A DNA stretch of 64,000 nucleotides from Tubulanus polymorphus (lineage: Eukaryota > Animalia > Nemertea), in NCBI RefSeq assembly GCF_964204645.1, contig NC_134033.1, positions 8,688,655 to 8,752,654 of the forward strand, written 5' to 3'. Positions 22,161-56,619 of the stretch are shown here, piece by piece (the first letter of the stretch is position 1; each line of letters starts with the position of its first letter). A model generated the notes under the pieces. It searched no databases. It had not been told where the DNA came from and saw only the letters and a program-made list of their open reading frames with translations. The position numbers and the translations under genes were made by a program.

Positions 22161-22579
22161 TGCGCATATATCATATATAACCATGTATCATTTATATCGT
22201 CCGCATTCGGGCTCGACACCTCAGAGCTCGCAACTAGTAAAACAGCAGACTATATCTTCAGTCTCGTTTTCGTTAACTATTAAGGAATTGGTAACGGGAC
22301 TAAAACTCCGTTAACTCACGTTGCCTCTTACTAGGCACTAGTTTGTGGCAGTCCCTCAAAGACTCCAGTTGCGATAATTAAGTAATCTCGTGAAGCTATA
22401 TTGTAAGATGACCATTCCCAAGTGAGTCGGTAAGACTTCAATAGCGGTCCAAACTGGTTCCCGAAACCAAGCTAGACGAATGCTCCTGCCAAATACAGTA
22501 CAAAGCTACAGAACATATCTCACCGGGGAAAATGTGGACAAATTGAATGGTATTTTATAAATCTCTGTGTTACGTGACA

Positions 22580-23005
22580 TTGCGGTATGCGGTAGGAAAT
22601 CCCTCTAACGCGTAATCTCAAACTCAAGCAGTCAAATATCTGCCATCAGGAAGGACATTTAAAAAGTTCAAACGAAGACTACGATTGCAAATATCGGTCC
22701 TTAACCTCTGATGAAATAGGAAATACATAGCTTTAACATATAATTAGATTTTTCAAAATGAATTAAGTTTTTACACACGCTTAAGATGTGCGGTGCCTTG
22801 TACACATCATCACAATTGTTGCTTTCGAAGAACCCGCCAATTACCAGCAACAATCTGCATTTCACTTCATTTCATAACATATAAATTTAGTTTATCAAGG
22901 AAGGCACTGCAGAGCTTATTGGTATGTTTTAAAAAAGAATGGAAATCATCGCAACAATGGGGACATCGAGGGACCGCCACAAAATGGCACCTAGAAACTT
23001 TGAAT
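22580..23005 (+). repeat. Diverged single arm of the TIR element at 42430-43948
   Basis: Shares cgcaacaatggggac.tcgagggaccgccacaaaatggc.cctagaaact and upstream sequence with 43490-43935. Confidence 0.75.
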
Positions 23006-25659: not shown

Positions 25660-27174
25660 GAAGGACAATATCTAAAGCAAAACTCTGCTATGAGAAAAGA
25701 TAGCTAAAAAAATTATAAATGCTTTATCTCAAAATGACAGTCTTTTTGGAAGATTCAAATATCATTTGAAACTCGAAACGCAGATACGAATGAGAACTGC
25801 CCAAACTTAGCTGAATTCAAAACTTTTTTTCGCGGAATAATTCAATCTGAATCAAACGATGACATTGATCCTGATCTTTTGCTTCATGAAAATGATACGG
25901 AAACTATTAATATGCCTCACGATCTAGACATCCCCATTACTAGAGATGAAGTTATAAGAGCGATAAGAAATCTAAAAAAGGCAAATCACCGGGTCTTGAT
26001 AATATCCTACCAGAAATGCTTATAACTCCCTCTGAAACCCAAACACCTCTGCTGACCATTTTTTTCAATGTCATCCTTCAATCAGATATTTACCCACAAA
26101 ATTGGAGCAGTGGCTGCATTACACCCATTCATAAGAAAGGGATAACTTCCGACCCAAACAATTATAGAGGTATTACCGTCTTGAGCGGCTTCGGAAAAAT
26201 ATTTTCAATTATTTTGAATACACACATTATACAATGGTTAGAGGCACATCAAGTATTGAATAATGCACAGGCCGGTTTTAGGCCAAATAATGGTACTATA
26301 AATCAATCCTTTGTATTATCTTCAATCATCGACCGCCGTATAAAGAAGAAAATGAAAAATGCGTGTATGGCATTCGTAGATTCTTCTAAGGCCTTCGATT
26401 ATTTGAACCACGACATTCTCTGGAAAAAGATTCTGGAAGCTGGTATCACTGGCAAAGTTTATAACATAATTAAATCTATGTATGCTAACAGCGAATCATG
26501 TGTCAAAAACAATGGGTTCATAACTACCTTTTTCGACTGCACCGTCGGCGTAAGGCAAGGCGATTGTATCTCTCCTGTTCTTTTCAATATCTATATTAAT
26601 GGTATGGAAGAATTTTTTAATAAAAAATGGCCATCCAGGCATTGACTTTAATCTATTCAAACTATATGTCTTGCTTTACGCCGATGATACCGTCATTCTA
26701 GCCCAATCGCACGGAGAATTACAGAATGCACTTGATATTCTGCATGATTATTGTAAAAAGATGAAGCTATCTGTGAATTCTGCAAAGACAAAGACAATGA
26801 AAATTGGGTACCGCAGAAATAACCGTAACCCCATTTTTTGTTTTTATAACGATGTCCTACTGGAAGAGGTGTCAACCTTTCAGTACCTTGGCATTACTAT
26901 ATCAAATAACGGCAAAATGTCTGCTGCAGTCAAGTCGCAGGCCGATCAAAGTACAAGAGCTTGCTTTGGACTCAAGAAGTATTTGCTAAACGCGAGACTC
27001 ATTTCTGGTAAAACCAAGCTTGACATCTTTGATTCATTAGTGAAACCAGTATTAATGTATGGTAGCCCAATCTGGGTATTTGAAAATGTTAGAAATATAG
27101 AATCCGTTCATGTCAAATTCTGTAAATACCTACTCAATGCGCGCGCCACGACACCGAATGTAATGGTCTACGGT
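25660..27174 (+). mobile_element. RTEX/RTE-like LINE fragment (reverse transcriptase), frameshifted and 3'-truncated by a Polinton end
   Basis: GKSPGLD, NYRGIT, QAGFR, AFVD.SKAFD, GVRQGDCISP, LLYADD, YLGI motifs in ORFs 26016-26645 and 26599-27231. Confidence 0.85.
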
Positions 27175-27374
27175 AATAATTGTATATATCTTTGTTCAGG
27201 CACGCTCGAATTTATATTTCATTTTTTATGAACTCGCCCTCTCAACCTTTAACCTGAACCAAGATATATACAATTACTCTAATAATATTCATATAAATGA
27301 ATAACATATCAATGAATAACATATATAAATGAATAACTTCTAAAATCAATTTTAATAAAAAACATGTTATCAAA

Positions 27375-27733
27375 ATGGAGAGTAAACAAGTACACAGTGA
27401 GAACAACAAATCATTCTTAAATAGAATTAAAGATATCAAAAATGCTAAATCAGTAGGTTATAAATTTAAGAAGTTAAATAGACTTACAATTCATAAGAAA
27501 TATTTAATTACAAATATTGATACAGTATTTTATAAATATGGAGATAAGTTAGTTATCCACTTAGAATATGAAGGATTAAAAGGAAATAAATATAAATTTA
27601 TTATATAATATATTTACCAGATAGATTTCATAGATTATCTAGTGAAGATCTAGAAGAATTATGTTCTGGTGATTTCTATTTTATATATAAGGGTAAGAAT
27701 GAAAAAGGGCACCATGATATAGATTTCGAATAA
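27375..27733 (+). pseudogene. Polinton small beta-rich (possible OB-fold/SSB-like) protein, frameshifted
   Basis: KKL...YKYG.K...L...YLPDRF..LS.E.L......IYKGKNEKG.HD; clear homolog of 60333-60659. Confidence 0.6.
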
Positions 27734-27767
27734 GAAAATTAATTTTGATAAAAAATTTGATATTAAA

Positions 27768-30700
27768 ATGGAAGCAAATAAGAAGAACTACTGTCCAACA
27801 TGTAAAATCAATATAGATAAATCTCAAAAAGCAAGGTATAATGAAACTTTAACACTTTTAGAAAATAAATTAAAATTAGAATATAAACATGATATATTAG
27901 AAACTAAATTAGATGAATTAAAGAATGAAAAAGAAATATATAAATGTGATACGTGTAATCAATCATTCAGTGATAAAAGATATTATAAAGAACATTTAAA
28001 ATCTAAAAATCATATAAGAAATATTAATAATGATATCTCAGGTGAAGATTATTTTGATAAAGATAATGATAAGAAACAGAAGACAATTAAAAGAATAGAA
28101 AATAAATTAAAAAGTAAAAGACTATTCATGGAAGATGTTAGAAATTATATTAATTCATTAGATAATAAAAAAGAACTAGAGATAACTGAAGCATTTCAAA
28201 GTGATATAGGACCAGCCGCAATTGAATTTAAATTTTACAAAGGTAAAACACTAAAAAAAATAAAAAAACATTTAGAAAATATGAAAAATATTATAAAAAT
28301 AATTACTGATGGTTAATACCCTAAAATTAGCATATCAGTTAAAGTTAAATTTATAAAATCAGAAGATAAACCAATTTATAATATACATTCCCATTCACAA
28401 CATATTATTTCAAAACAGCATATAGATGATAAATTAAATAAATGTTATAATGAAGTCAAAAATAAGATAGAAGAGAAATATTTTGAAGGATCTGGTTTAA
28501 TATTTGATGAAATAATATTTATGACTTTACATGTTTATAACACAAAATATAATTAGTTTACTGAATCAAAACCGATTGATGAAAATAATTAATCATATTA
28601 TAAAGATGATAATATAAATGGATCAAGTTATATCAAATTACCATTTAAAACTAATGCTGTTATAAATGTACAAAATGAAGATGATAAATGTTTTCTATGG
28701 GCAATTATAAGTTGTTTACACCCAGTTGAAGATTATAATCAACATACTTATAGATTAACACATTATAAACCATTTGAAAATAATTTTAAGATAGATAATT
28801 ATCCTGTTAGAATTAAAAATATCCCAAAAATAGAAAACGATAATAATCTAAAAATAAATGTATTCGATTAAATCAGATTACCAAAAACAAAAGGTAATAA
28901 TATTAAACATTTTACATTAGAACCTTTATCTCTATTTAAAGATTATGATTCAAATAATGTTATAGATATATTATATTATGAGAATCATTATATGTAGATT
29001 AAAAGAATTGATTTATTTTTCAAATCAGAAAACGATTTTGATAACAAAATATATCTATGTAGAAAATGTTTACATAAATTCAGTAATGAAAGTGCCTCAT
29101 TAAATCATAAACAATTATGTGAAAATCATGAATACTGTAAATTAATTTTACCAAATGAAAAAGATGAAATATTAGAATTTAAAAATTATGATTACAAGAA
29201 TAAAGTACCATTTGTAATATATGGAGATTTTGAATCACTAAATAAAGAATTAACTGATCAAGATAGAAAAGAAATATATCATAAAAGAAAGAAATCAAAT
29301 TCTAATGAAAATGATGTAATTGATTATTCAGATCCTCTAATAACAAATACTATTAAAAAGATTCATCAAAGTGCTGCAGCTTTTGGATTATATATAAAAT
29401 CTGATTATCCTGAACTAATTAAAAGTGAGTATTATCCTTATCGAAATGAAAATGTTACCAATCATTTTTGTGACTTGTTAATTGAGTATGAAATAAAATT
29501 TAATGAAAAGTTAAATAAAAATATAGAAATTATAATGACAGAAGAAGATAAAGAAGAATTTGATTTATCAGATAAATGTTATTATTGTGAAAAACTATTT
29601 AATCTAAAAGATAAAAAAGTAAGAGACCATGATCATTTGAATGGAAAGTTTAGAGGCGCGGCACATGAGAATTGTAACTTACAAGCTAAAATAAATTGCC
29701 CATGGGCAAAGTGTGGTTTACCTTGAAAGCTAGAGGTTGTTTGGGGTAAGGGCATTGCTTGAAAAATCTTTTTAATTCGTGACTTCAAAGTTCTTCAACT
29801 CTAAATATTGTATTTTCTCTTTCTTAAAGGATTATTTTGTAGTCAAATAAGACCACCAAAGATATACATTTGTTTACGGTCTACATCCAAAATTTCGTAG
29901 GGTACAGGTAGGCGGGGCATGGAAACTATTTTGTATTTTTGGAGAAATATTTTTCATAATATGAAAAAATATTCAAATAAAATTCATATGATGTCACCTA
30001 TCAGAGGGTGGCTGAATGTATGGCCGCGGAAGCTAAAATACCGGTGCAGTAAGAAATCGGCGTATTAGATCGTTTTAAATCCTGGAATTTACCACTACAA
30101 TATTCAGACCTCGACCTATACCTATAGTTTGCTGCTTAGTATTTTCAGGTCACAAGAAATTACAATTTATTACAAATTCTATCAAACAGAAAACACAGCA
30201 CTCATCTTCTGCTGATGAAATATCAAACGCGCCAGCAAGCAGCATTTCAGTATCACTATAGTAGTGTATACTGTACGCGCGTGTGTTTGTGTCTGCAACA
30301 GTCTAATCTAATGATTTCCGCGCGCACGTGGAGGCCTTGTGTAAGTGAATGTTCGCTTACACTTCAATGTCATCAAATCAATTACCGGGTATTATTAAAA
30401 TGAAACAATACCTATGGCGGATAATAATTACATTATCTCCAGCAATTCGCATTTGAAATTCGCACGTATACGGCACCTAGTCCAATGAAACGTTCGCCAT
30501 TCTATGGCTTTCCCATAATTATTTTAGTAGCGCCAGAATTCCCCGAATATCCCAAAAACAGCCAATCACATTCGCTCGTAGAGACAACGCCCCCCCCCCC
30601 CCCCCAATCGAGGTCATTGCAATTTTATACGCGAGAGCTAAGAATTTTCCCGCCAAAAACAGTTTTTCGTACAATTTTAGCAATGTTGACCATGTCATCG

Positions 30701-31626
30701 ACGGAGGTTCGCCATGTCTTCAATCGCATCGATTATATGTCATTTAAGCCGAGAACCAATGAAACAAATGCTCACATAAAAAACGTACCGCGATTTTACA
30801 TGAATTGGCTCAATGCCAACTTCATATCGCTGACAAAGGTACACCAAAAATTAACTTTGTTCCAGTTATTTCATAATTTATCAGGATATGATGCTCATTT
30901 ATTTATCAAAGAGCTATGCCATAAAATAGAAGAAATCAATAATGAAATAGGAAGATTAAATTCAAATAGATCAAAAGATAAAATACCAACTTATAAATTT
31001 AGAATGTTAAATGTTAGTTAAACATCTGAGAATTATATATCTTTTCAATTTGGGTGTCTAAGATTTATAGATTCATATACATTTTTAAGTAGTTCATTAG
31101 ATAATTTATCAAAATCATTGGTTGATGATGAATTAAAAATATTAAAGCAACATTACCCAAATAATGATGATTTTCAATTAATGAGATATAAAGGAGCAAT
31201 TCCATATTCATTTTATAAATCGCATAATGATTTTAACATAACTGAATTATTAAAAGAACAATTCTATGATGAATTAGAAAATTAATATGTTAAAGATGAA
31301 GTATATAATAGAACAATAAATATTTGGAATCATTTCAAAATAAAAAATGGACAATTAGTATATTTATATTGAAAATCAGATGTATTATTATTAACTGATA
31401 TATTTGAAAGGTTTAGAGATGTAAATCTGAAATATTTTAATATTGATCCATGTAATTGTTATTCTAGTCCAGGTTTAACTTGGGACTTTGGATTAAAATT
31501 TACAGATATAAAAATGGATTTGTTAACAAATATAGATCAATAATTATTATTTGAAAAATCTATAAGAAGAGGAGTTTCAGGTGTATTAGGTGATAGATAT
31601 TTCAATGTAAATGATAATCCTGGATA
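27768..31626 (+). pseudogene. Protein-primed family B DNA polymerase (HNH/EndoVII-insert type) with N-terminal C2H2 fingers; stops, insertion and truncation
   Basis: CDTC..HLKSKNH, FEGSGL, GSSYIKLP, NEDDKCFLWAI, VPFVIYGDFES, VRDHDHLNGKFRGAAHENCNL, FHNLSGYDAHLFIK, RFIDSY, SDV..L.DIFE.FR, YSSPGLTWD. Confidence 0.9.
29691..30845. mobile_element. 1.15-kb unclassified repeat inserted in the pPolB gene
   Basis: Higher GC block; pPolB reads ...CNLQAK | KINFVPV.FHNLSGYD across it (contiguous in the 63340-63410 paralog); its right end resembles 49700-49800. Confidence 0.75.
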
Positions 31627-32895
31627 TAAAAATCCATAGCAGCAAAAACAGTACAAATCTCATTTCTAATGAGTAACATATATTTATTATAGCGAACGTT
31701 TTCGGGAGTTACATTATCCCCTCTTCAGGCATAGCGCAAGTGACTGGATTTACATATCATACTGGTATTTATATAGAATAAGACGAAGCTAATTACAAAC
31801 AATTTCAAATTACTGAGTGACAAGATAATCATAATATAAAGATAACTAATTACACACAATCTAAATTACTGAGTGAAGATATTCGACTAGTGGTTAATTA
31901 TCTAAAAACATTGAGAATGAATCCTGAACCGTATTCGAATAGTTGTTGATTAAGGGAGGGCTGTTGAGTTTTGATAAAAAGTGCTTCTCTAATTTTACAA
32001 TCTAAATCGGAGGAACCTTTATCTAAAATTTTGAAATTCTTTTCGCTAAACGAGACCTGACAGTCACGACAGTTTGATAGATGTTGGCCAATTGCTGAAG
32101 TCTTAAGTTTGTGCTCCTTAACTCTTGTAACTAGGTGTCTTTTTGTTTTACCTATATAGGCAGTGTTTATATCACATAAACAAGTGTATTTGTAGACAAC
32201 CATAGCTTTCAAGGATTTATGAGTCGGACACTTAAGTGAAAAGAAATTCTTAGTGGTTACGAATGAGCATTGAAGGTCTTTTTCGAAATTCGATTTAAAA
32301 AGTTTCTTTAATTTTTGAGCATATAGAATAGACGGGAAACCCACAAACGGTATGGAAATGAAAAGAGAAACTTTACTCTCATCAACGGTTTTAGGCTGGG
32401 TAACGAATTTAGAGTCGAGAAATTTTTTAACACAGTGATCAAAAACATGGCTAGGATAACCATTAAGTTTGAATAATTTCTTAAGAAATCAAATTCTTCC
32501 GAAAGAATGTTCCAAATGCTGCATGTATTGTATGCACGAAAAAGCATCGTGTTGATAAGACCGGTTTTCCATTTTTAAGCACACATTGCATTAAAGTTCA
32601 AAAGTAATCCAGTATTAGAAGCTTTTCTATAGACGCGTGAGATGAAATTAGTACTACCAGTGTTAGCCGGTGCTTGAAAGAGAGTATCTAAAAACGTTCG
32701 CTATAATGAATATATGTTACTCATTAGAAATGAGATTTGTACTGTTTTTGCTGCTATGGATTTTTAATCATGTAGACTCTCTACCCAAGATCTACTTCTA
32801 CTGCGCTAAACAGAGAGCAATATACGTGAAGGATTTCCGCAAATGTGAAAAGCTGTATCTGAAATGGTGTAAACTACGATTAGATATTAATTTTT
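31627..32895 (-). mobile_element. Penelope-like retroelement, 5'-truncated with inverted pseudo-LTR
   Basis: RT C-terminus (FLD..VYRK..TG) and GIY-YIG endonuclease (VVYKYTC...YIGKTKRHLVTRVKEH...EALFIK..PSLN) on minus; 32690-32895 is an inverted copy of the pLTR running into the ORF N-terminus. Confidence 0.9.
31688..31735 (-). ncRNA. Hammerhead ribozyme in Penelope pseudo-LTR
   Basis: CTGAAGA-GGGGATAATGTAACTCCC-GAAAACGTTC core on the minus strand. Confidence 0.65.
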
Positions 32896-35800
32896 TATCT
32901 CTAATCATTATATCATGCGCAAATTTATCAGCTTTAATTTAAGTCTTACGTCTTTAATTTCTCGTATTGCTTTATCAGAAAATATATTTAATTCTTCTAA
33001 TTCTTGATCTGTTGCATCAATTAATCCATTCGGTAAAAGTTTTTCGATTTGAACTCCTCTTGAATTAGGTTTACTAGTTTTGGAAGTTAGATCGTGTTTA
33101 GAAATTTTCTCTGGGTTTAGGTTTGGTTCTGAATATTTAGTAATTGTTTCAAATAATTTAAAAAAATTATTTTTAAATACCAACATGTTTTCAACTCTTT
33201 CTTCTTGTGTAACATTTTCTATTTCATTTTCCTGTAATTTCTGGTACTTCATTTTCAGTATTTATTTTTGAACATGCATTTTTAACAAAAGCATTAGTAT
33301 CAGGTCTTGCTAAATTAGAATTATATGCAGTTTCATTATCATTATCAATATTAGTTTCATTAAATCCAGGTTGTGGTTCATCAGGTATACCAGGCTCATC
33401 AAAAGTACCCATTGGAATATCTTCTCCACCTTTTGCCATTTACATATTAAAGAAAATTAAAATTTAAAATATAATATTCCTCCAATTACAATTCCTATAC
33501 AAGTTATAGCTAATTTAGTATTTTCATGGGATTTATTATCATTATTAGTTTTAATTATTTTATGTTGAATAATATCAGTTTTTATATTTTCTGTAGTATT
33601 GTAATCTTTTATTTTAGAATCATTATTTAATTTAATATTCTTAGTTTTAGTTTCAGTTGATTGAATATGTTTTTTAATTTTAACACCTTCCATTCGTTTT
33701 GGAGCAGTGATAATTTTGTTATTTATATCATTTAAACCAAATGAATTATTTATTGTTGCAGTTTTAATCAAATTATTATAACCAATTATATTTCCCATTT
33801 TTAATATTAAATCATCAGAAATAACCTAATTTATTATTATAGATATTATAAAAGCTATTAGATGGTATGGGAAGTGCGCAATATTGTAAAATAATAAATA
33901 TTTGTAAAATATTTTCAGGACAAGGAAGTGATCTTATTGTTCCAATTTTTGTCCTAAAATCAGAATTATTTATATTTATATTAAATTCATTACAAATTTT
34001 ATAAAACTCTGATTAATTGATATTATTATCTAATTCTTTAAAATATCTAGATCCTGGTAAAGGACACTCTAATTCATTTGATATTAATCTTATTTGAAAA
34101 TAAGTATGAAATCTAAATGAACTTTGAATTAATTCATATTTTGAATTATTTAAATGATCATTTCAACTAATTCCACATCGTGTTGTGGCACAATAAACAG
34201 CAAAATGTAATTGGTTCTGCCAATACTTTATATTGGATTTTAATAACCATTGTTTTTCATCTATCAATTTTTTTAAATTAATTAAATATACATGAAATAT
34301 ATTTATCATCTTTACATTAAAATTATAAGTTTCAGTAACATAAATATCTAAATTAATTAATGAATTTAAAACTTCATTCCTATATGTGATATTTTTATTA
34401 AAATCTATTGCAGGAATATTATATTTAATTGATTTATTATATTGGAACGCTTTTGGGAAACTAATTGCCATTTACATAATAAAAAATTAATAATTTATTA
34501 ATTCTTTTAATAATTTATCTTGTTCTTCAATTGTTATATTACCATTATTAAACTTATTATATAATCTTATGTATTTTTTAATTTATTAATTTCTTTTATA
34601 TTAGATTTTATTTTTTCTTTATTACCTTTTATATTTAATTTTTAACTTATTCCGGTTAAAACACTCGATGATAATCCTAGCACGCCAATTGACATAGCTA
34701 AAGGAGTTAATGGTGAGAATATTGCTAAAATTGTTATCACCGAACTAATTGTAACAGAACCACTAATGATAAGATAATATATAATTTTACTTTTTAAATA
34801 TTTTTATCTTTAAATCATCTTCAAATACTAATTTTTTTTTTCAAAATATAATTTTAATTTAGTTTTATTTATATCATGAGGAATAATATCATTATTATCA
34901 ACTTTATCATCCATTTATTTAGAAATGAAATTACTAATTAGTAAATTTATAAGCAACAAATATAACAATAACAGTTCCACCTAAAATCCAAATTATTTCA
35001 TATTGTTGTTGTTCTTTACTCGGAGTATAATAATCTGATAATTTAGGTTTATATAGATGTAATTTTTCTTTATTTGTTACTGCTTTATAAACTCATTGCA
35101 TCATCGACTGATTGAAAATCTCTATGTGAAATTTTCTGATTATATAATTCTTTATTGATGTAATCCATATAATTTTGTCTTTTTTATCTTTATTTTTCTG
35201 CTGCTTTATTATATTTTTCTAACGCTAAGTTAGGTCTTTTTTGTTCCGATAATGAACCATTTTTATCGATGCGTTTAAATAAATAACCACCACCAGTAAA
35301 TGCTAAAGCGTTAACAATTGCTGATCCTATAATAGTTATAATTGCAGATGCCATTTATTTAGTAAAAAAATTATGCATTTATAAAGGGGGAATATATTTT
35401 TGTTTTTCCAAATAATCAATCGTTAAATTAGATAAAGTAACTGCTTATGTTAATTCTAAAATATCATTTATATCAAATCTATCAACATTAATACTTCCCA
35501 TTCGAAACACTTTTTTAATACCATTGTATAACCAACTGTTCCAACTGATAGTAATGTTCCATTATATAATCCATTTATTATCCACTTATTATCACTCATT
35601 TATTTATTAGAAAAATCACCTTCTTCAAAATATTTAGTTATCTTAGTTATAATTATTTCAAAATTTATAATATGATTAGTTTCATTTTTGTATATTTCAG
35701 TTATTATTTCTTTAATATCATCGATGATAAAATCTTCATCTAATTCATAAAATCTTAAAGATTCTCCAATTAAATCAGTAATCTTTTCCACATTATAAAT
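32896..35800 (-). pseudogene. Cluster of decayed Polinton/adintovirus small and membrane/virion genes (starts at 33439, 34471, 34914, 35354)
   Basis: Head-to-tail AT-rich ORFs; MASAIITIIGSAIVNALAFTGG..EQKR and W.NQLHFAVYCATT.CGIS resemble conserved invertebrate Polinton genes; two have hydrophobic helices. Confidence 0.6.
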
Positions 35801-35972
35801 TTCTTAATTTATTGTTGTTTAATATTCAAATGTTGTTTCATTAGTAAATGCAATATTTTTGATATGTGTAATTACATCATTAATATCAAATTTCATTTCT
35901 TTCTCACGTTTAAAATCAAATCCAAAACATATACTCGGTCCTACTGTAATATTCATTTATATAATGAAAAAA

Positions 35973-36450
35973 TTACTCTCTACATCTTACAACTAATTCA
36001 TAAATTACTGGAAAGTTATTCAAATCAATTAAGTATCCATTATGATTTCTTATTTAAAATTATTAAAAATGTGGAATTCAAGGTTTGAATTCGCATTCTG
36101 ATAAATTATGATTAATTTGTGTTCCAAATTGTTTAACATTTTTAATGGCAGAATATTCAATATACTAGAATTACAAATTGTATCTATAGTTGCTTCGAAT
36201 GTTTTTGTTACTCTCTAAATCTTACAACTAATTCATAAATTACAGGAAAGTTATTCAAATCAATAAAGTATCCATTATGATTTCTTATTTCTAATCTAAA
36301 ATTATTAAAATGTGGAATACAAGGTTTGAATTCGCATTCTGATAAATTATAATTAATTTGTGTTCCAAATTGTTTAATATTTTTAATGGCAGAATATTCA
36401 ATATACTAAAATTACAAATTGTATCTTTAGTTGCTTCGAATGTTTTTGTT
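35973..36450. repeat. Tandem duplication (~237 bp x2) of the penton 3' end
   Basis: 35973-36207 repeats 36208-36450 with scattered substitutions and small indels. Confidence 0.9.
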
Positions 36451-36956
36451 GGATCAAATAAATTACCACAAACATAGAAATGTGTGTAAGGTATTATATT
36501 TGTATAAGTATCAATATTTGAATAATCTTTATCTGGAAGAATTCCAATTAGTTTAGCTAAAGGTTTTCTTACTAGAAATCTATGTTGTTCATTACCTACT
36601 TTTATTCTATTTTAACTATCACTTTTAATAAACTTAATTACAAACTTACCATATGCGCCCATTTTTAAACGAGCTCTTTTATTAATTTCTTGCGCTAATG
36701 TTTCTAAATTATATAATCCTGGTTTTAGATGAAGATGAAACCATCTATTCAAATTTCTAACATGAATTTTAAAAGCTAAATGATCAAGATTTTTATTCGA
36801 TATATTATGAAAAGAATAACATAAACTTACATTTACTAATTTAAAATCAACGCAATTCCTAAATTCTCAATCTAATTGTACTAGTAAATTATGAGATTTA
36901 TAATTTGTAAGTCTTCTTGAATCAACAAATGTTCTATATTCTTTTAATTCACCCAT
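36208..36956 (-). pseudogene. Polinton minor capsid (penton-like) protein with in-frame stops
   Basis: LKPGLYN...IN, LAKLIG, YVCGNLFD, ILNILP and C-terminal LEIRNHNGYFIDLNNFPVIYELVVR match the penton pattern. Confidence 0.65.
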
Positions 36957-37496
36957 TATTTATAACACAAAAAAATTACCTCGAATCACTAAAAATTAAT
37001 TTTAATAAAATTTTTCCTTAATAAATGGAAGAGAAGATACCATGTGAAATTGTGGTGAACTTCAAAGAAAAGTTTGAGAAATCATAGATATATCCACGAA
37101 TTAAATGATAGGTTACATAATTCAAATTAAGTTTGATAATGAAAAAGATTAATTTCTATTTACATATTGATGGACGAATTGGACGAATGGACGAGGGTAC
37201 GACAGTGGGGTCTTATATTCAAATAACCCCTATGTCTTCACAGATTTATCATATTTTATATTTTCAACTAATATATTTTATATTTTCAGCTGATATGATT
37301 TATATTTTATTAAAATAATATTTAAATATAGCATAAAATTGATAAAATAACTTAAAATCAAACTCGCACCGTTTTTTTTAAATTAAAAAACATATGTAAA
37401 TCATATATTATTACACTCGTACACTCGTACAATTCGTACCATTCGTAATTAATAATATTAAGTGTTGTGAAATATGTAATAAAAGATATAAAAATG

Positions 37497-38500
37497 TTAA
37501 TAAATATTATTAATTCTATCTGATAGATAATTTATGTTATCTTTTAATTCAGCGTATGTAATCTTGCAATTATCATAGAATTCTAACAAATGTTTCAAAC
37601 TATAAACTGAAAATGAAACTAATCCTGTAAGCATAATAATTGATTTGATATTCTGTTGATTTTTATAAATAAGGTGAAATATTTCTAATACCTTACTCTC
37701 ACTCATTTTTATAGTTAAAAAATATATAAAATAAATTGAATTAAAAGATGCTGTTTTAATCCTCTCTTATTCTTATTCTTTTAAATGATTAACTTTTTTA
37801 TTGTTATTTTTTCTGTGATTGTTTTCATTTAACTTTTTACTCAATTTCATATTTTCATTCATTAGATCTTTACTGATATTTTCATAGTAGAAGTAAAGTG
37901 CAGCTAATATTAAACGTCCAGCAACTAAATAATGTTTTAAATCACTTTTTCCAATTGGAATGCTGAGACCATCCATTTATTTAAGAAAAATAGTAATTTG
38001 AAATATCTTATTTTGAATATTTAGAGTTGAATTATTATTTTTGAGTTATGATATTTTGATTTAAGATGGTGTGATTTATTGCTTCGAGTATGATATTTTC
38101 CACAATAACATAACGCTTTTTCATTAGGTTCATATTTAGGTGTTTCGATTTTATTGTCTAAGTTACATTGAATTCCAACATCTTTGAATGATTTTTCATT
38201 TGGAATGTCAGGGGTAAATCTTTTTTCTTCTACTCAGAAAAACATTACATAGCATTCTCTGAAAGGGCAATAACGTAAGTGTAAAAATAAAGATTTATGT
38301 GAATTTTCATTATTAAAAAGTGATTGTATTTCATCTGTAATTATTCATTGTTTAACTATTTCATCAAATGTTGTGAATTTCGGAATTATTGTGTTGTATT
38401 TATAATCAAATCTTTGATAAGAATAAAATTTCTAATTGTAAAATATTTTTCTAATTCATTTAAATCGATATCTTTGAACTGTAGTATCTGTTCATTCATT
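37497..38500 (-). CDS. Three small Polinton accessory ORFs (37706-37497, 37976-37773, ~38500-38000 decayed)
   Basis: AT-rich ORFs with TAAA(A)TG starts; the first two have a hydrophobic segment followed by a coiled coil. Confidence 0.5.
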
Positions 38501-38944
38501 TATAAGTAATCTTTTTATCAAAATTGATATTTTCTTCAACTCGTTAATTACTCGTTACTTTTTATATTGAAAATAAGAATTTAACACATATAAATATAAA
38601 TATTCAATGATTTAAATATGAATTATTTCACTCACACTTTACTCACACTTTTTATGTTTAAAATTGATTTTTTATTGCTGAAATCTATATTTGATCTTAT
38701 TTTTCTAGATTATTATGCTAACATTTCACTCTCACTTTTAAAACATGAAATTTATTTCAAAATATATGAAATTCATTTAAATAATGTTCATATATATGAA
38801 TATTTTAAGAGTAATACGGATAATAGTGGTTCATATCAAAGGTTGAATGGGCGAAAAATAAATTCGAGTGTACGAGAATTTATTTTTCGACCTTTCGACC
38901 TTTGGTATTAACACCTATTATCCCTATTACTGCTATTATTATCT

Positions 38945-39900: not shown

Positions 39901-42429
39901 CAGTTATGAAGACACAAAATTCATACAGCTGTGAAAAATTCTACCCAAATTTGATTATTGCGGATTTTGGAGATGTGAATCTACTGGATTTTTGGGGTCC
40001 TGCTTCGCATTTCGTAATTTCGTAATTTGATTTCCTTTTGTTTCGTAATTCCGCTCCATATTTCGTAATTTCGTGGTTTCTTACTTAAAAAGTACCCCGC
40101 TTTGAAACCTTTAGTACCATTTTCTTCCAGGTAGGACTCGTTTTTTACCTTCAACGCCCTGCCTACTACGTTTAAAATTGTGTATGTGTTTATCGTATAA
40201 TGTTTTAAATTATGCGCATCAAAATATCCAAATTCAAAAGGCCTTCGCCCGATACTTTTTGTGTATGGATGTTACGAGTCATTATCTTTTTTGGGTTTGA
40301 GCGACTAGGTGTGATTTATGTTTGTACCTACTGGATTGGGGGAGAAAGAGCCTTCAGATCACAAGAACCCCCTTCCATTTCCGTTCGATATCTTCGATCC
40401 AATTATCTGCCATGCTGAACTGTTGATCCTCATAGAATGGTCCTGACGGTAACTTTCTGTTAGCTCTTGGTGGCACAAACTGTAACCACCGGATACACAA
40501 CTGATATTTTGTCATTAGGATGGAAATAGGTTTTGGAATTGATATGGCAAGTGTCGTCCATCAGATCCAAGCCATCTGAAACAAGCCATTTGGATGTGCT
40601 GGGAGAAAATGTGCAAAATTTCAATGGATTTTCCCCCAATTTACAAGTCGATGCTTGACATAGTTTCATATATCACAGGGAAAGCCCTTCAGATGGGCAT
40701 CACTTGGAAATCCCTCCAGAAGGGCTTCATTATCAAGAACGGTTCTACCACGTACTTGTAACTCATAGGGAAAACCCATTACGTGGTATATCATCAAGGT
40801 TGAACATCTTTATCAGCTATTTATACGTTATTGCAAATTCAAGAACAAATCGATTATTGTGCTCAAGACTAAAATGTACCTAGTTGATCCGACTGGACCC
40901 ATAGTCCTTTATTTGAAACTATTTGAATTAGAAAGTTTATGATTGGATACGAATGACGGTCCAAAATGGCTGATTAGCTGTAGGCCCCTATTACATGTGT
41001 TCAGTTCCAATGCCTCGCAGCTGATTCCTGTTGGGTGAATTTGAGGGAACTTTGTGAGCGTGAATCACTTCACAAGATTTGGTGTGATTTGGTGCATCTC
41101 TAAACAGGTATTGCGTGAATCATGAATATCCCGGTAGCAAAACAATCGAATAGGGCGGAGATTGAAACTTCATTTGGTCAGAATTGAATAGTTTTTGACG
41201 TATGGCAACTGAGGCGACGTGTATACATTCATTTGCCTGTATGAAATGGCCTTGAATGACATATTTTGGTTGTTACTACTTACATGAATCGATTTTTTTC
41301 ATTTAAGTTAGAAATTAACATAATTAACATAATATGGCCGTAAATATCATTGTTTTCTTGCGTGACTTGAATTCTTAAATTCATACTGATCCGCAGCAAG
41401 ATTCCGTGGAAGCAAAAAAATGTTCGTAATGTTGGTTTCTTGTATGCGTTGGTGTTCTATCTAGGGGTCAGCAAACGATGTAGTAAAAATGCGGAAGTGT
41501 TGTTGATGCTTTAATCTATCGGCACTGACCATAAATCAGCCTTGTGTAAAATAATTCGTTACTAATATCGGTCTGGCAAAGAAATCTGTAAATAAAGCTC
41601 CATTATACACGGTACCATAGTTGGGTTAGTCTGAACGACGGAATTTATAAATAATACGGCTCGTGAAGGTATCACGCTGATCCTTGCTGATATTTCTTAA
41701 AAGGTAAAATCGAAAGTTCTACGTAGGCATTGTTGTTTTGCCGTAAAATAGTGGAATTAGTAAAATTGATAGATAACAAACTATTATAGCAATTATGATA
41801 ATTGAGTTATCTCAAAAGTGAAAATGATCCAATGTATTTACGAATCAAAATTAATAACAAATATCAGTAAAGAGATATTGTATTTGTAAGAATATATTAT
41901 ATTGCCGTAGTGTGAGGAAAAACAAAGTGTAACTCATGGTAAATTTAAGTAATTTGAATGTTATTTAAGTAAACTGTAATAAGAATCGCTTAGGTTTTGG
42001 GGAATCTTTGTGCAATTGTGTTACTACATGTAACTCTCTGAAGTTTCTCTGGATGAATACGTCCGATGGTAACTCACAAACATAGCTGTTCTATCAATGA
42101 TGATAGCCAAGGAGTGAGTAAATCATTCCGCGTCATGACAGGAGGTTGGCAAAAGAAAAGTTAGTTGAGCGAATCAGTTTTTAAAATAATTTTAGATCAT
42201 TCAGCGAATCATTCGGCCTAAATTATTTCGTAACCAAAAACAGAAATGGACGGTCATGACGTTGGATTGCTTGCTCCTTGCCAAAATTGGAAGGCCTGGA
42301 GTAGGAGAATCGGAATTTAAAAAATGCCAGTTCTTTCCTATAAAAGGGGTCCAGAATCTTGGAAGAGCAGACTTGATTCACACTTGACTCGAGACTTCGA
42401 TTCGAGACTTTGATTTCGATTGCATTTCT

Positions 42430-43948
42430 AATAAAGAAGTTTCCAGTTTCTAGGCGCCATTTTGTGGCGGTCCCTCGAGGTCCCCATTGTTGCGATAATT
42501 TGCGCTCATTTTTAAAACATAAGTTTAGATTGAATATCACATAGTTCGGCAGTCCCTTGCTCGATGAACTTAATTTATACACCATTTTAAAGGAAATGAA
42601 ATGCAGATATTTGTTGGCGATTCTTGGAATTTTTGAATGCAACAATTGAGAACAGTGACGATGTGAAACTAAGGACCGCATATCTTAACCGCGCGTAGAA
42701 GAAATCGCAATATTTATTGATTTTGAAATATCTAAGTATATCTTGAAGCTATATTTCCAATTTTCACAGAGCTTAAAGAGGGTTATTTGCAGTTTAAGCC
42801 TGCGTTGAATTTATACTGGTTTGATATCATTAATATTGCTTCTTATGGTTATCGCCATGCAGCCCGTCCAGCCTAGCGCCGATTTTGTGTCCGGTGAAAT
42901 CATGGGCCCAAAACGTTTTAGAGTCCATGGTGAAATGTGCTAGTCAATTTAAACGCTTAGGACATATTTCAACACATATCTCTCTCCGGTAATCCCTCAT
43001 CCTGGGATCATACGACGAATTTACTGAATCTCAACCTTTTTGCTGGAAAACATCGACCAGATAACCTGACTGATATAAAATATCAATATTATATTTAAAG
43101 GGGATCCCCCATTTGATATTCTGTTTTAGGGGCTCAACGTCCAGTTGGGCTACTTAAAGCTGCGCCGCATATTCAAAAATATATAAAAACTTAGATTTTG
43201 TTCTAGTGTCCATCCATGAGTGGAACATTCTGTTGAAAAGCAAATTAGGCTCTCAACTAGGCCACCTATGCAACCAACACAGAACGTCCCCACTCTTACA
43301 AGAAATCCTTCAATTTCCCATCGCTACAAAACTCGAATTCCTCAAAGCACTCAAAGTCCATTTTTAAACATACGAAAATAAAGGTAATATATAACCATAA
43401 GAAGCAATATTAATTATATCAAACCAGTATAAAATCTTATTTTTGCGATTTTTTTTCGTAAATCTCAATGTTCGGTGAAATGGCGGTGCGCAGTGGGAGA
43501 CCCCTTTTGCACGTAATCTCAAACTCAAGCGGGAACAGATCAGTCTTCAGGAAAGATATTCAAAAAAATTCAACGCAGGCTTAAACTGCAAATAACCCTC
43601 TTTAACCTCTGTGAAAATTGGAAATATAGCTTCAAGATATACTTAGATATTTCAAAATCAATAAATATTGCGATTTCTTTTACGCGCGGTTAAGATATGC
43701 GGTCCTTGGTTTCATATCGTTACTGTTCTCAATTGATGCGTTCAAAAAATCCAAGAATTACCAACAAATATCTGCATTTCATTTCCTTTAAAATGGTGTA
43801 TAAATTAAGTTCATCGAGCAAGGGACTGCAGAACTATGTGATATTCAATCTAAACTTATGTTTTAAAAATGAGCGCAAATTATCGCAACAATGGGGACCT
43901 CGAGGGACCGCCACAAAATGGCGCCTAGAAACTGGAAACTTCTTTATT
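42430..43948. mobile_element. 1.5-kb non-autonomous TIR element with ~420-bp near-identical inverted arms (possibly PIF/Harbinger-ISL2EU group)
   Basis: 42430-42850 is the reverse complement of 43390-43948, apart from a ~135-bp indel; termini AATAAAGAAGTTTCCAG. Confidence 0.85.
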
Positions 43949-45482
43949 GGATGACGGTTACCAACAGGCGTGTAGACATTGGAAACATTAGGGAACTAGG
44001 ATTAGAATTGTGTTCTGAGATTCTGAAAGCTGCAATTTATAGAGATCTTGTTAGGGTAGATTAGAATATATTATTTATTTTTATTCAGTCTCGCCATTCT
44101 AATTTTTAATTGGCTTCGTGCACGGCCACGTTCTCTCGCCAGGGACCAATAATCAATACATTTACTATTAACGATCGAAGAGAGAATTGTGATCGGTGTA
44201 TCAATACCCACTATCGCTCCTGTAGGCCGGGATAGAACCTGGGCTTTTAGCCGGATACGACATTCAACGAGTCGGTAGGCGCCTTTGCGTAAAGCCGGCT
44301 CACATCCAACCGCACGCCGCTCCTTCCTGCACTACTTACCTACCGATTTTCAGATTAATTTCTGTAGTTTCCGCAGTTCCAGTCACATGCTTACTATTAA
44401 AACAGGCAGAAAAAACTAGACCCCCCACCCGACAGGATACTGTCTGCAAGGAATTTCATTCTATTCTACAGTGTTCCCCCTCCCTAACCGAAATGAGGAA
44501 CTTACACGCAAAACTGTATTATAGGACATTTCCTAGTTTTGGAGAACTTAAAAAACTATATCTTTATAAGGAATACTCTCTGGAACAAAAACCTGTGTAA
44601 CTATCATAATGTTTTGCCCTCAGCAAATCTTTTTTCTTGGGCAATAAACTGAACTGAACTGAAGTCGCAAATCGCTAATAAACCGAGTTGCGTCGGTAGT
44701 TTGTCGCGGGACGACAAGATTCGCCGCAAAAATGATGATCTAATAGCAAGAAATTTTAATAGACTCGGCCATTCTTCATCAAATTTACCAATTATAGGCA
44801 TTTGAAAAGCATTATGGAAGCAATTCCAACAGAAAACCATTAGAAAAGAACAAGGACTTGGAAAAAAGAAAAGGTTAACCATTTGGTATTTAAGCCGAAC
44901 TAAACTAGTATAAATTGAAGTGCAAATTCTGTCTACTGCGCATCACTTGCTGTGACAAATGACAACCTGTATCGTTAGCACAGTATTTGAACGTCGCAGA
45001 GAGTACTTGAACAAATAATCAATTATTAACCGTACCATTTAAAAATATACAATTGGAGCTCAGAGTATCCAACCAATTACCCTAAATAGAATAGATATAA
45101 CAGGTCAGCTTGTGATTGATCGAATATTAAATGATCTCACGTGGGTGCACGATATTGGCGAGCAAGATCCCTATAATGTCTATTTAGACTTTGTGTGAGA
45201 GGAAAGACACCGAGCGATCTAGCTAATTGGTTTGTACATACCTGACATGCTAGTCACTTTAAAACCTTTGGTATGTACTACCAAAACTGACTAACTGAGG
45301 CTACCCGATGCCCTTTCAAACGGAATGAAAATAGACATGAATTCGCCTTGTACGATAAGCTTGTGAGTCTCTTAAATAAAGGTGTCACAAAAGGGTACCA
45401 AAATCGTTATATATAGTTAATCAATTTGCACATATGCCAGGATGCCGTCGAACTAAGTTGATAATATTACAATGACACATAC

Positions 45483-47357: not shown

Positions 47358-48398
47358 AGTAATTTGAAATATCTTATTTTGAATATTTAGAGTTGAATTA
47401 TTATTTTTGAGTTATGATATTTTGATTTAAGATGGTGTGATTTATTGCTTCGAGTATAATATTTTCAACAATTACATAACGCTTTTTCATTAGGTTCATA
47501 TTTAGGTGTAACAATTTTATTGCCTAAGTTACATTGAATTCCAACATCTTTGAATGATTTTTCATTTGGAATGTCAGGGGTAAATCTTTTTTCTTCTACT
47601 CTGAAAAACATTACATAGCATTCTCTGAAAGGGCAATAACGTAAGTGTAGAAATAATGTTTTATGTGAATTTTCATTATTAAAAGTGATTGTATTTCATC
47701 TGTAATTATTAAATGTTGATCTATTTCTTCAGATGTTGTGAATTTTGGAATTATTGTATTGAATAAGATTGTATCTTTATCATTCGATAACTCTATAGTT
47801 AGATAATAATTTTTAAATTTCAATTCAGTAATATTTTTCACTTGAAAACGAAAACGTCCAGTTTTAATCAAATCTTTAATAGGAATAAAATTTGTAATTG
47901 TAAAATATTTTTCTAATTCATTTAAATCGATATCTTTGAATTGTAGTATCTGTTCATTCATTTATAAGTAATTTTATTATTGAAATTAATATTTTCTTCA
48001 ACCCGTTAATTACTCGTTATCTTTATATTGAAAATAAGAATTTAACACATATAAATATAAATATTCACTGTTTGAAATATAAATTATTTCACTCACACTT
48101 TACTCATACTTTTTATGTTAAAAATTGATTTTTTATCATTCGAAATCTATATTTGATCTTATTTTTCTAGATTATTATGCTAACATTTCACTCTCACTTT
48201 TAAAACATGAAATTTATTTTAAAATATATGAAATTCATTAAAATAATGTTCATATATATATGAATATTTTAAGAGTAATAGGGAATATGTTGTTTCAAGT
48301 CAAAGGTTGAAGGGTCGGAAAATAAATTCGAGTGTGCGAGAATTTTTTTTTTCGACCTTTCGACCTTTGGCTTGAAACAACATATTCCCTATTACTCT
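47358..48398 (-). mobile_element. Solo 1-kb right end of Polinton family A with terminal hairpin
   Basis: Clearly similar to 37992-38931; ORF 47611-47961 retains ~100 bp missing from the 38.4-kb copy. Confidence 0.9.
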
Positions 48399-50044: not shown

Positions 50045-52299
50045 AGTTTAAATTACGTGTTACAAGTCCCTCCGTCGTAGAAATTTCATTCCTATTAGCA
50101 GTAGTTGCAGAGTTGAGTGAGTCCATGCAGCTACTCGTTACCCTACAAAGCTCTTTAACCCCCAACTCCACAAATCATTACGCACGCTCGATCGATGATT
50201 TGGGTTTTCTGTCCCGGAGGCAAAACAATTATGTCATTCCGTTTATGATTAGAGTTCTCCGCTTCGTCGCAAAAACCCTAGTGTTTTTCCCGCATAAATA
50301 TTGCCCGTTCAGACAGGATGGGAGATTATCTTGAATAACCGGAGGCGAATTTCCATGTTTATGTACTTCGACCGCCGATACACAGCTATATCTATACTTC
50401 GATTAGCCCCTGTTCCGATACTTGACACCAAATTAAAACAGAAATCAAACTGAATCTAAAGCCACAACCGTGGCAGCTTTTAAGCAATGATCAAACCAGT
50501 AAAGTTATTCAAAAAGTCAGGATGTTACTAAAACAATGCCCTATTAGAACGAAGACCGAATGCATTTTGCGGTACTAAAACTATGCATGGCTAAAAAGAA
50601 AACCGAAGACCTATGCACTCTTTAGAAATAATGGGGGCGCTATCTGTGTAATTCAATCACCTCCAATGAGTGTAGGCAATTTACCAGAAATAATCAAACG
50701 CATATGAAGCGTAAAATGGTCGAGTGCATATGTCTTCGTTTCGTAGTGCTTTGTTTTAGTAACACCCACACAGGCAAAACTAAAACTGCAGGACTAAAAC
50801 GAAGACCGAAGACCTATGCACTCATTAGAAACCAATCTCAAACTTGGAAATACAGCTGCAAAGCGGCGGTAACGGGTTTTCCACAAAGCCATTCAGGATG
50901 ATGGGAATTGAAGACAATTTGAATACCGATGCATAGAATAAAATGCATTTACTGATTCGAACCTAATATGCAACCTATGTGTAAACGTCCAATGTGATTC
51001 AGCTTCGAAACCGAACTTACGCAGATGCAATAAATACGAATGTTAATTGATTCGACCTGGCATTTATTTTGGCATTTAAACATTAAGGTATTATCATCAA
51101 GCTTAAAAAATTGATCCGTCTATTAAGAACTCATCTTTACAATCTGCTGAGTCGATAGGTTGAGGAAACTCACAGATAAGAACGTAATAGGATTTGGAAT
51201 AGATTTAAGGAATTAATCTTTTTAGTGAAATATTTGAATTAATGCATATATTGTAGCGTAGATTCAATCAATAGATTATGAATTGATTTGGTCTGGGTTT
51301 CGGGCCCGATGTTTATTTCGGCTTTTATGGATTTCGAATTCTATACTGATTAACAATTTATACCTGCATCATGTGTGTAAATATCACACCTATTCCACTA
51401 GTAACGTGTTCCCTAATAAACGGGACAGTCACTCTTAGTTACCGGTATAAGAAAAATAATGTTCATTCGTTATAGAAATTCATTACCCTTTTGAAAATTC
51501 TATAATAATATTTGTTCTGTCCTAATTTTTATTACTATGGACCAATGATATGCTTTGTAAATATGATGTAATAAGATATATTTGAATTTGAATTAAATTT
51601 GAATATTCTTTTCACTTGTCTTACTTGCACCGATGTGGATACTTCAAAGAACACTAGGGTTATTTTAATATTCTTATGCAGGAAATAATAAACCCAATCA
51701 ATAGGCCCTATTCCCATTGGTATAATTCGTACAGCTGTACCGTACACTTATCAGTCGAGATTGGAGAAATCGGTATACCAAACCTATGTACAGCAAAATG
51801 TACTGGCCTGCATAATGATTTCTAGTATACAAGCCGTGACCACATGGCTGTTTTGGATCTAGGTTTGACTATGAATGTCAGCGGGTCAGACAAGGCCCGC
51901 GCAAAATTTGATCGCATAGCTCAAATCAATTAGCCTTTCTGCGCGTAAATACTTCACCGTATAATTTTGATAACATCGAGTGAATAGTATATTATTCACA
52001 CTGGTCAGTGTCCTCGGCTCCGCGTTATTTAAGCGATGGCGAGCATAAACAACCCTGGTCCTAACCACAGCCCCCACTCCCTACCCTCACCACATATAGT
52101 AATCCCCAACCACACAAATAATCCCCAACTCCACAAATAATCCCCAACCCCACAAAACCCAAAAAAATCATCATCATCACTCCGCAGTAACAGCAATTGG
52201 ATCACCTCTGAAAGAGACCACAGTCGGGACACAGGTAGGGTCCGACACTATGGGGCCTCAATGAGTGAGAGGGGAGGAGGGATGAGGGGAGGACTGAGG

Positions 52300-52420
52300 G
52301 GATGACGTCACACTGGAAGTGACGTAATACCGGGAGTTACGTCATCCAAGATGGCGACAGGAAGTGACAATATCCAAGATGGCGGCTGGAAGTGACGTCA
52401 TCCAAAATGGCGACCGGAAA
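52300..52420. promoter_or_regulatory. Tandem ETS (CCGGAAGT), CRE/ATF (TGACGTCA) and YY1 (CAAGATGGCG) motifs in the Polinton TIR (mirrored at 59455-59555)
   Basis: Repeated ggaagtgacgtcatccaagatggcg units. Confidence 0.7.
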
Positions 52421-53329
52421 TGACGGTTGAAATAGTGGGAAAATTCAAATTCAAATTTTTGGCGGGAAATTCAATTTTTCCGTTTAATCCAAACTAAATT
52501 ATTGGTATGAATAAAATCCCAATTTATTCATTAGATGGTGCCACAATGCGAGATCCTATGCGTGTGTCTGTGTGCGTGCGCGTGTGTAGAGGGAGGGATA
52601 CAGGGGGAGTATCATGGGGTTTAAAATCAGTTTAAAATTTGCCCAGCTATCACAGACGGAATCCAGTTATTTTGGGCAGTTTTGAAGACGCTTCAATGTA
52701 ATGTCTTGATATTTGGGTTACACATGCATCTACCCTAGACACATCTTCAGCCCAAAAACTGGCCCTGTCAGTATCAAGATGGCCGACTGGCAGCCATTGT
52801 TGTTTGCCAAAATCAGCACTTTTTACACGTTTTTGAACTTTTTGAGGGAAATTTTGAAGACACTTTGATCAATTACCTCGATCTTTTGTATATATTTGAA
52901 TCCCCCAAGGGCCCATAAGCATAACAAAAATTGGGTCGATCGGACTCAAGATGGCCGTCCTATGACATTTTTAGTGTCCAAAAATGTCGATATATTTTGC
53001 CGTCGTCTTATTTTCATTTTGACCGATTTTTCCCCACAGTTCGCATCCCCATGGCTTTTTTAATCGTATCTTCTTCGAGCTGGATACCCGCCTCTCTTTC
53101 TAAATAGTCCGAAATGAATTTATCCTTCTGTTTGCGCGACATATCTTAAGCCGGCCAGCCACTAGCTTCGGTTTTAACATGTATGTAATCCCCGAATAAA
53201 CCCGTTTCATTAGTCAACCAAGTCCGAATTTCATATATATCTACTATCTTATAACCAAGTTACACTGCTTTTTCTACCTCTTAAGTTACCCAGGTGCCCG
53301 TTATCGAACGTTTATCGAACTGCGGCTAT

Positions 53330-53810
53330 CAATGGTACGCAACTCGTTAAATGCTGATATAGATTTATCTAGGCCAATGTATTCTTGATCCATTTTAGTT
53401 TGCACCAACGACATGTGTAAAATATCATCATTGTTGCTTCCACGAATTTAATTTTCCTAGTAAATCAACTCGCCTTTATCATTCCATTCCAAAATTCCTA
53501 GATTATCTTCAAAAAATGCACATAGGGATTTGTATGTTCCTAAATCTTAACGGTAACCGATCAATTATTTTCTGTGTAGTATGTTTGCCCAAGATTTCTT
53601 CAATATCGTGTGTCGTTTGGTTAACGTCCTTTTCTGCAGATGATTTATACATTACTTGCTGTAATAACTGATAATACTTTAAGTATTTGAGATCGTCGGG
53701 TAATTTTTTATCCGCTAGAGGGTTGTAGGTAGCGGGTGTTTCTTTTTCTCGTCGACGCTCTTGACTGGCGAAAAAAGCTTGTATCGAGGGTAAAATGGAA
53801 TCGGATGAAA
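53330..53810 (-). pseudogene. Conserved Polinton hypothetical gene, decayed
   Basis: L.D..LPDDLK...Y.QLLQ and DDKGELI....IRGSN.DD pattern. Confidence 0.5.
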
Positions 53811-53813
53811 TGA

Positions 53814-56580: not shown

Positions 56581-56619
56581 AGCGTCATTCGTAATTAGTC
56601 ATTAACTTTCGAATTCAAG

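Follow-up and report, generated by a model that had tools for sequence, protein, structure and literature searches.

In late promoters of vaccinia virus, TAAATG spans the start codon and a T flanked by further T residues lies ten bases upstream (PMC11980589, PMC5294985); its intermediate promoters combine an AT-rich core, a 12-bp spacer and a TAAA that is read by the polymerase core (PMC12917281). Both vaccinia and the virus-like elements of yeast produce poly(A) leaders by slippage on the TAAA initiator (PMC6211774). Integrated copies of mavirus are silent until a helper infects (10.1101/068312), and the gene starts of Gezel-14T, Sputnik and the transpovirons copy the promoter of the large virus (10.1101/2022.07.28.501842, PMC11788076). 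Polinton-like viruses (PLVs) from entomopoxvirus occlusion bodies were proposed to be poxvirus hyperparasites, and one of them was found inserted into the genome of a beetle (Barth et al. 2024, PMC11296320). We analyzed gene starts of this kind on Polintons (Mavericks) in DNA of Tubulanus polymorphus (Nemertea; GCF_964204645.1, NC_134033.1:8,688,655-8,752,654, forward strand). This whole stretch of 64,000 nt is called the window, and positions are counted from its first letter.

Two AT-rich stretches of the window (GC 0.20-0.25) are Polintons, named A and C:

27173-38934: Polinton A, GC ~0.23, decayed, with two later insertions; its ends are approximate and were set from hairpins.
60290-64000+: Polinton C, which has an open polymerase frame besides ORF1 and a broken rve integrase; it runs past the window end.

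The gene starts in A and C carry one signal per gene, in which a TAAA(T) word is fused to the ATG and one of two designs stands upstream. In the T-run design, at least 4 T end 6-8 nt before TAAAT; in the core design, RATAAA lies 11-13 nt before TAAAT. The individual signals were as follows (L numbers denote loci fetched in the searches described below):

27350-27377, plus strand: ORF1 start of A, core type (AATAAA, 11 nt, CAAAATG; the initiator is imperfect here); ORF1 has homologs in L004 and L005.
27743-27770, plus strand: start of the protein-primed DNA polymerase (pPolB) of A, core type (GATAAA, 11 nt, TAAAATG).
33437-33459, minus strand: T-rich signal with TAAATG (T3, 6-nt spacer), gene at 33439.
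34469-34489, minus strand: T-run signal (T6, 6-nt spacer), gene at 34471; the start matches the first Met of P0125.
34471-33457, minus strand: the gene so started, a single broken member of a family of 420-450 aa proteins for which a C-terminal membrane anchor is predicted.
34912-34934, minus strand: start of a SLATT-like two-membrane-helix gene remnant (weak Pfam match, E 0.048), with an interrupted T-run and TAAATG.
35352-35373, minus strand: T-run signal (T7, 6-nt spacer), gene at 35354.
35597-35617, minus strand: T-run signal of the start at 35599, in the tail of the upstream gene; the sole case in which TAA is that gene's stop.
35954-35975, minus strand: T-run signal, gene at 35956.
36954-36978, minus strand: start of a minor capsid (penton) remnant, T-run type (T7, 6 nt, TAAAT then AATG); profile E 2.6e-6 at 36672-36842.
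37000-37027, plus strand: double-design start at 37025 (AATAAA core, 12 nt containing T5, TAAATG), divergent from the penton gene and ranked 1 of 530 ATGs by the weight matrix described below.
37974-37990, minus strand: T-run signal (T5, 6-nt spacer), gene at 37976.
38497-38523, minus strand: core-type start at 38499 (GATAAA, 11 nt, TAAATG); the gene is related to a 223-aa ORF of L006.
60313-60335, plus strand: ORF1 start of C, T-run type.
61376-61400, plus strand: pPolB start of C, T-run type; the frame is open for 867 aa to the window end.

An ATG at 33798 was dropped as a gene start because it lies inside the 34471 gene.

An earlier note on this DNA had proposed a poxvirus-type late promoter from six of these sites (33439, 34471, 35354, 36956, +37025 and 37976), and all six read as it described, each with a 6-nt spacer before TAAAT. 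The variants that it named at 34914, 38500 (here 38499), 60333 and 61398 exist as well; 38499 lacks a T-run at that distance and belongs to the core design. The strict 6-nt spacing was too narrow: the spacer measured exactly 6 nt at 6 of the 14 starts and 6-8 nt at 9. Sites 35956, 35599, +27768, +27375 and 47961 (the last in a second copy of A's right end), together with the core design, were absent from that note.

The initiator (TAAATG, TAAATAATG or TAAAATG) was present at 13 of the 14 gene starts in A and C and at 47 of the 516 other ATGs; TAAATG or TAAATAATG lay over the start codon at 12/14 starts. The T-run design preceded 9/14 starts versus 5/516 other ATGs, and the core design 4/14 versus 1/516, which is a loose test, as the core has no strict consensus. 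Either upstream design was found at 12/14 starts compared with 6/516 other ATGs, with both at one start. A T stood at position -10 in 9 of 12 initiator starts and in 11 of the 39 initiators elsewhere. Six of the 14 starts (33439, 35354, 35599, 35956, 37025, 37976) are without homology support and were chosen with the motif in view; therefore, p-values from these counts are inflated. Among the starts backed by homologs or an intact ORF, 7/8 carried the initiator.

We considered whether the motif is a by-product of AT richness, given the GC of 0.20-0.25 in A and C and the mild enrichment of TAAATG alone. Shuffling spoke against this: T4-N6-TAAATG occurred 5 times in 32795-38790 versus 0.37 expected, a number reached by 0/500 shuffles (dinucleotide and 4-mer), and T4-N6..8-TAAATG gave 19 matches in the whole window (some overlapping at one site) versus 4.1 expected, reached by 0/100 shuffles. 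The enrichment of motif and spacing over an AT-rich background, as the earlier note required, was thus borne out. A polymerase coding control of the same composition, AT-rich control Polintons (GC <=0.30), in which only 4/78 starts carried TAAATG, and the relative L006, with a GC of 0.44, also refuted this explanation, to which we give almost no credence.

Relatives were collected with polymerase-alignment scans, which fetched 109 loci, and the tree was built without polymerase pieces <350 aa, matches <300 aa and exact duplicates. In this tree, the window polymerase fell into one clade with L001-L006 (FastTree support 0.996), of which L002-L004 are one element. With an ORF call blind to the motif, TAAATG was present at 14/17 starts of L001-L006 versus 33/528 in the other loci; the three misses were two truncated polymerase frames and one integrase. 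The core design was common in L002-L006. A weight matrix trained on 14 starts of relatives alone ranked the window starts with an area under the curve (AUC) of 0.92, and of 0.76 from the upstream part without the last 4 positions; three window starts ranked poorly (96, 100 and 312 of 530). L006 has AT-rich starts despite its GC of 0.44, and it contains a 32-nt palindromic signal with a divergent ATG at each end, serving two genes. Because the two ATGs bound the signal, there is no room in it for an RNA polymerase II (Pol II) promoter and a leader. No relative turned up when viral contigs were scanned with P0001, P0122 and alignment A2, and the scan with alignment A1 gave 14 distant loci, none inside the L001-L006 clade.

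Mavericks/Polintons are usually treated as host-transcribed. We weighed whether host Pol II reads these genes; the motif would then be a compact AT-rich core promoter or provide an A-rich context for translation, and AATAAA would also serve the preceding gene as its poly(A) signal. Many diverged copies of the family sit integrated in nuclear DNA, AATAAA belongs to the core and, in many cases, to the initiator, and adintovirus transcripts were reported in fish tissues without a named helper (PMC8502044). The bases next to the ATG argue otherwise: position -3 was T at 11/14 window starts and 16/17 starts of L001-L006, whereas it was A at 289/528 starts of other Polintons. A purine is preferred at -3 of start codons; T is rare there in the other Polintons and unusual where a message has an ordinary leader. 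In addition, AATAAA cores precede first genes and divergent pairs that have no upstream gene (L005, L006), gaps between genes measure only 3-29 nt, and Polintons such as L030, L044, L056 and L082 show neither an AT rise nor TAAA at their starts. Transcription by Pol II is therefore unlikely in our estimate.

A further explanation is that TAAATG joins a stop codon to the next start for termination-reinitiation, or that it marks a trans-splice acceptor on polycistronic messages. The TAA at 35599 is indeed the stop of the upstream frame, T-runs often directly follow an upstream stop, and L004 has a tandem stop before pPolB. Nevertheless, TAA was the stop of an upstream ORF of at least 100 aa in 0/14 TAAATG starts of L001-L006 and in one case in the window, and divergent starts carry TAAATG too. 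For a splice acceptor, AG was found in the last 10 nt at 0/14 starts versus 174/516 other ATGs. The T at -3, the lack of AG and the divergent starts thus disfavor Kozak, trans-splice and stop-start readings, and we regard the joined-codon or acceptor explanation as very improbable.

Since the signal stands at nearly all starts and is kept in relatives, the family likely borrows the polymerase of a large DNA virus. We consider it probable that the TAAA(T)-ATG signals are promoters for the multi-subunit polymerase of a co-infecting Nucleocytoviricota helper rather than for host Pol II; a pox-like helper takes about half of this probability and other orders take the rest. Each gene would have its own promoter, made up of the TAAA(T) joined directly to the ATG and, about one helical turn upstream, a T-run or an A-rich core. 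By analogy with vaccinia, transcription would start inside the AAA and slippage would add a poly(A) leader, leaving the T at -3 outside the mRNA. As in mavirus, integrated copies may be silent until the helper infects and may then be expressed, replicated and packaged. The relatives, the GC-rich control L006, the anti-Kozak T at -3 and the bidirectional site lend independent support to a large-virus promoter, which appears to be the best reading of these signals.

We next asked how far the signal points to poxviruses. A scan with the L006-type pattern matched one 130-kb viral contig, G001, which has Rpb2 and an icosahedral-type capsid gene whose best solved-structure matches were 7yjl and 6ojn, which we take to be marseillevirus and iridovirus, respectively. 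In G001, TAAATG was found at 6/10 starts seen versus 30/679 other ATGs, a count that rests on L230 and L231, as L232 yielded no ORF starts. L230 came from the motif search, and of the 9 remaining starts 5 carry TAAATG. The core design had 12 matches in G001 versus 2 in a reversed control, and the T-run design had 6 versus 8 in the control. Because the core design is present in a non-pox giant virus contig, it is not pox-specific; the T-run design still appears to fit poxviruses best. Nothing ties G001 to the host T. polymorphus. In a scan of viral contigs with the T-run pattern, 7 among the 120 matches listed opened a frame of at least 60 aa, which looks like chance. Between divergent genes, this uncultured, iridovirus-like giant virus has a short putative bidirectional TAAATG promoter (L230:3934-3963 and L230:4991-5031), as in L006. 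The proposal of a large-virus polymerase promoter stands as the best reading. Its pox-like helper is less certain, given the core design in a non-pox contig and the lack of any poxvirus gene detected in the element or its relatives, and the suggested antiviral defense found no support here.

Several results weigh against a helper-read promoter. No helper virus was seen, and none of 78 ORF pieces, taken from A and its second copy, from C and from the relatives, contained a poxvirus-type gene. TAAATG alone occurred 24 times versus 17.1 expected, a number reached by 16/500 4-mer shuffles, and AT-rich DNA has many TAAA words. AATAAA, the poly(A) word, forms part of the core. The two designs do not follow gene class cleanly: the core type precedes pPolB in A, L004, L005 and L006, and the T-run type does so in C and L001. 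At the penton start, loose ends of other copies show TAAAT with an A-rich upstream. The many diverged host copies need germ-line entry, which is harder to picture with helper dependence. Starts of a looser kind, with TAAA close to the ATG and AT-rich DNA upstream, are present in other aquatic Polinton clades (L014, L020, L029, L076, L091, L222), for example at 8/8 starts in L076, 9/13 in L020 and 8/11 in L222; because several clades show them, the trait is not tied to one helper.

Moreover, a complete member of the clade was not seen, and some probability therefore stays with a pox-like polymerase that the family carries or that a partner element residing in the cytoplasm provides, as in yeast linear elements, without any outside virus. 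Yeast protein-primed elements do use a TAAAN initiator, slippage poly(A) leaders and a polymerase of their own (PMC6211774), and the central part of the clade genome has never been seen whole. None of the ORF pieces scanned matched an RNA polymerase, however, the relatives' contigs of 3.8-7.2 kb show none, and Polintons of 15-20 kb leave little room for one (gene lists of L081 and L222). We judge this arrangement improbable. Returning to a helper-read promoter, we tentatively extend it, at well below even chances: the clade may consist of endogenous hyperparasites of a pox-like virus in animal genomes, with intermediate- and late-type promoters as a borrowed cascade. Start sequences would then sort helper-transcribed from host-transcribed Polintons and predict unseen large DNA viruses of their hosts.

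The 36957-37027 stretch allowed a comparison between copies. All 5/5 common differences among contigs of other copies fell outside the 38 motif positions (p 0.018), a test of one stretch only, with motif limits set by the analyst; this is a weak sign of selection.

A third Polinton lies in the window:

52250-59600: Polinton B remnant, with a PF03175 polymerase piece, no T-run/TAAATG site and no intact gene start.

B had been offered as an internal contrast carrying ETS, CRE and YY1 motifs. Such words are present in its terminal repeats (ETS-/CRE-/YY1-like, 3/4/3 left and 3/4/1 right) and absent from A's ends; they occur in the terminal repeats only, and no gene start of B is intact enough for a comparison. 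The contrast between B and A thus appears real but indirect.

The structure of the elements agrees with Polintons/Mavericks: they have a protein-primed family B polymerase, an rve integrase (C and L002) and terminal inverted repeats. Besides ORF1 and a broken protein-primed polymerase that has two insertions, Polinton A contains several minus-strand genes in a row, one of them the minor capsid remnant. The remaining features of A and C were as follows:

27768-31626, plus strand: pPolB remnant of A, broken, with an insertion at 29690-30847 (joint 29689-30847) and cut off at 31627.
27177-27275: left terminal palindrome (hairpin) of A, z -5.7, with an inverted match to the right end.
38810-38931: right terminal palindrome (hairpin) of A, z -10.6.
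47358-48398: second copy of A's right end, with a TAAATG start at 47961 and a near-perfect terminal palindrome at 48272-48398 (z -16.8).
60684-61316, plus strand: broken rve integrase of C (E 5e-21); rve is intact in the clade member L002.

The terminal inverted repeat arms of A (27273-27339 and 38749-38815) are 76% alike, and no target-site duplication was seen by eye at its decayed ends. Each of the family ends (27177-27275, 38810-38931, 48272-48398, L005:174-462 and L006:656-1025) is palindromic and could fold into a hairpin of 100-290 nt; the L006 palindrome (656-1025) has a gene on either side, resembling the junction of a circle or concatemer. No match to major capsid, ATPase or protease was found in the whole window with profiles built from the fetched loci, which may reflect deletion or divergence; no major capsid was recovered for the clade either, and no integrase was detected in copy A. 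Copy A is a broken relic and cannot act alone. Contigs of four public runs (11,313 contigs of unrecorded kind), 85-99% alike, cover A along its full length, indicating that the family has many diverged copies. The open 867-aa polymerase frame of C matched 1237 proteins, including insect Polinton-type polymerases at 32-35%. In C, one 40-nt block that includes the start signal precedes both ORF1 (60299-60340) and the polymerase (61364-61405), suggesting duplication of a promoter cassette.

The identity of the penton remnant rests on a local minor-capsid profile; a homolog search gave no match. The 3' part of this gene contains a tandem duplication of ~240 nt (35973-36450). The gene at 33457-34471 (minus strand) and P0125 belong to a Polinton protein family of 420-450 aa with 689 relatives and no Pfam family. 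The model of a 441-aa member had a pLDDT of 89 and was mainly helical, with a C-terminal helix that is membrane-like. We rejected this family as a divergent major capsid, as PDB, viral and wide searches gave no clear match (best Z 3.8) and the Atlas gave no usable match.

The fetched Polintons split into two kinds, with AT-rich TAAA starts or none (~60 loci), and the trait occurs in more than one polymerase clade. L215-L229 are Polinton polymerase contigs within 15 loci of prokaryotic genome bins, most likely through binning contamination. The window itself has a GC of ~0.36, is rich in repeats and contains LINE reverse transcriptase remnants. A retroelement-like insertion is present in both Polinton A (31627-32794) and Polinton B (54176-54750), 98% alike over 300 nt; it looks like a candidate of the GIY-YIG/Penelope type. 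An element with 386-nt inverted repeats (97%) lies at 42427-43951, with a related partial copy at 22553-22999. The 522-aa ORF at 12774-14342 (minus strand) has a stonustoxin helical domain and a weak fibronectin III match, and appears to be a host gene of a toxin-like family.

Whether animal Polintons are autonomous viruses, transposons or satellites becomes testable gene by gene with this promoter signature, which predicts transcript start sites, poly(A) leaders and expression that needs a large DNA virus. If the proposed dependence is true, virophage-type biology would extend from protists to animal germ lines, and the host would be expected to have a virus that has so far gone unseen. The split among the ~60 loci also offers a cheap way to sort Polinton collections.

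Protist virophage promoters are treated in 10.64898/2026.07.28.741278 and PMC10328495. The word promoter occurs 0 times in the searched parts of PMC8502044, 10.64898/2026.10.13.758929, 10.1101/2024.03.23.586382 and 10.1101/2025.04.19.649669, and no literature on TAAAT-type promoters in animal Polintons was found among top-ranked results, which did not cover subscription journals; bioRxiv supplements might hold motif analyses.

The window signals resemble vaccinia late and intermediate promoters in having TAAAT(G) over the start codon with either a T-tract 5-8 nt upstream and T at -10, or a core, a ~12-nt spacer and TAAA. They differ from vaccinia in that the putative promoters stand on an integrated Polinton without a polymerase and the designs are not strictly sorted by gene class. 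Yeast pGKL1/2 share the TAAA initiator, the slippage poly(A) leaders and the protein-primed element; unlike the present family, they are non-integrating cytoplasmic elements that lack a capsid and bring a polymerase of their own (PMC6211774). Like Mavericks/Polintons and "adintoviruses" (PMC8502044, PMC10328495), the family has pPolB, an rve integrase, a minor capsid and terminal inverted repeats ending AG...CT, whereas palindromic termini and ATG-fused initiators set the clade of L001-L006 and the window apart from Mavericks/Polintons generally. As in mavirus and the endogenous mavirus-like elements (EMALEs), Gezel-14T, Sputnik and the transpovirons, a small integrating or episomal element carries promoters of large-virus type; those systems have protist hosts, known helpers and the motifs AAAATTGA, TATATA or the CroV late motif, whereas here the host is an animal and the motif is of TAAAT type. 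For the entomopoxvirus PLVs, the helper link is co-sequencing from occlusion bodies, two lack a detected integrase and two have a primase-helicase; the main text of that report contains the words promoter, motif and transcription 0 times (PMC11296320). Promoter sharing between a small element and a giant virus is thus known in protists, and poxvirus-associated PLVs have been described without promoter analysis; the candidate signature described here is in animal Polintons.

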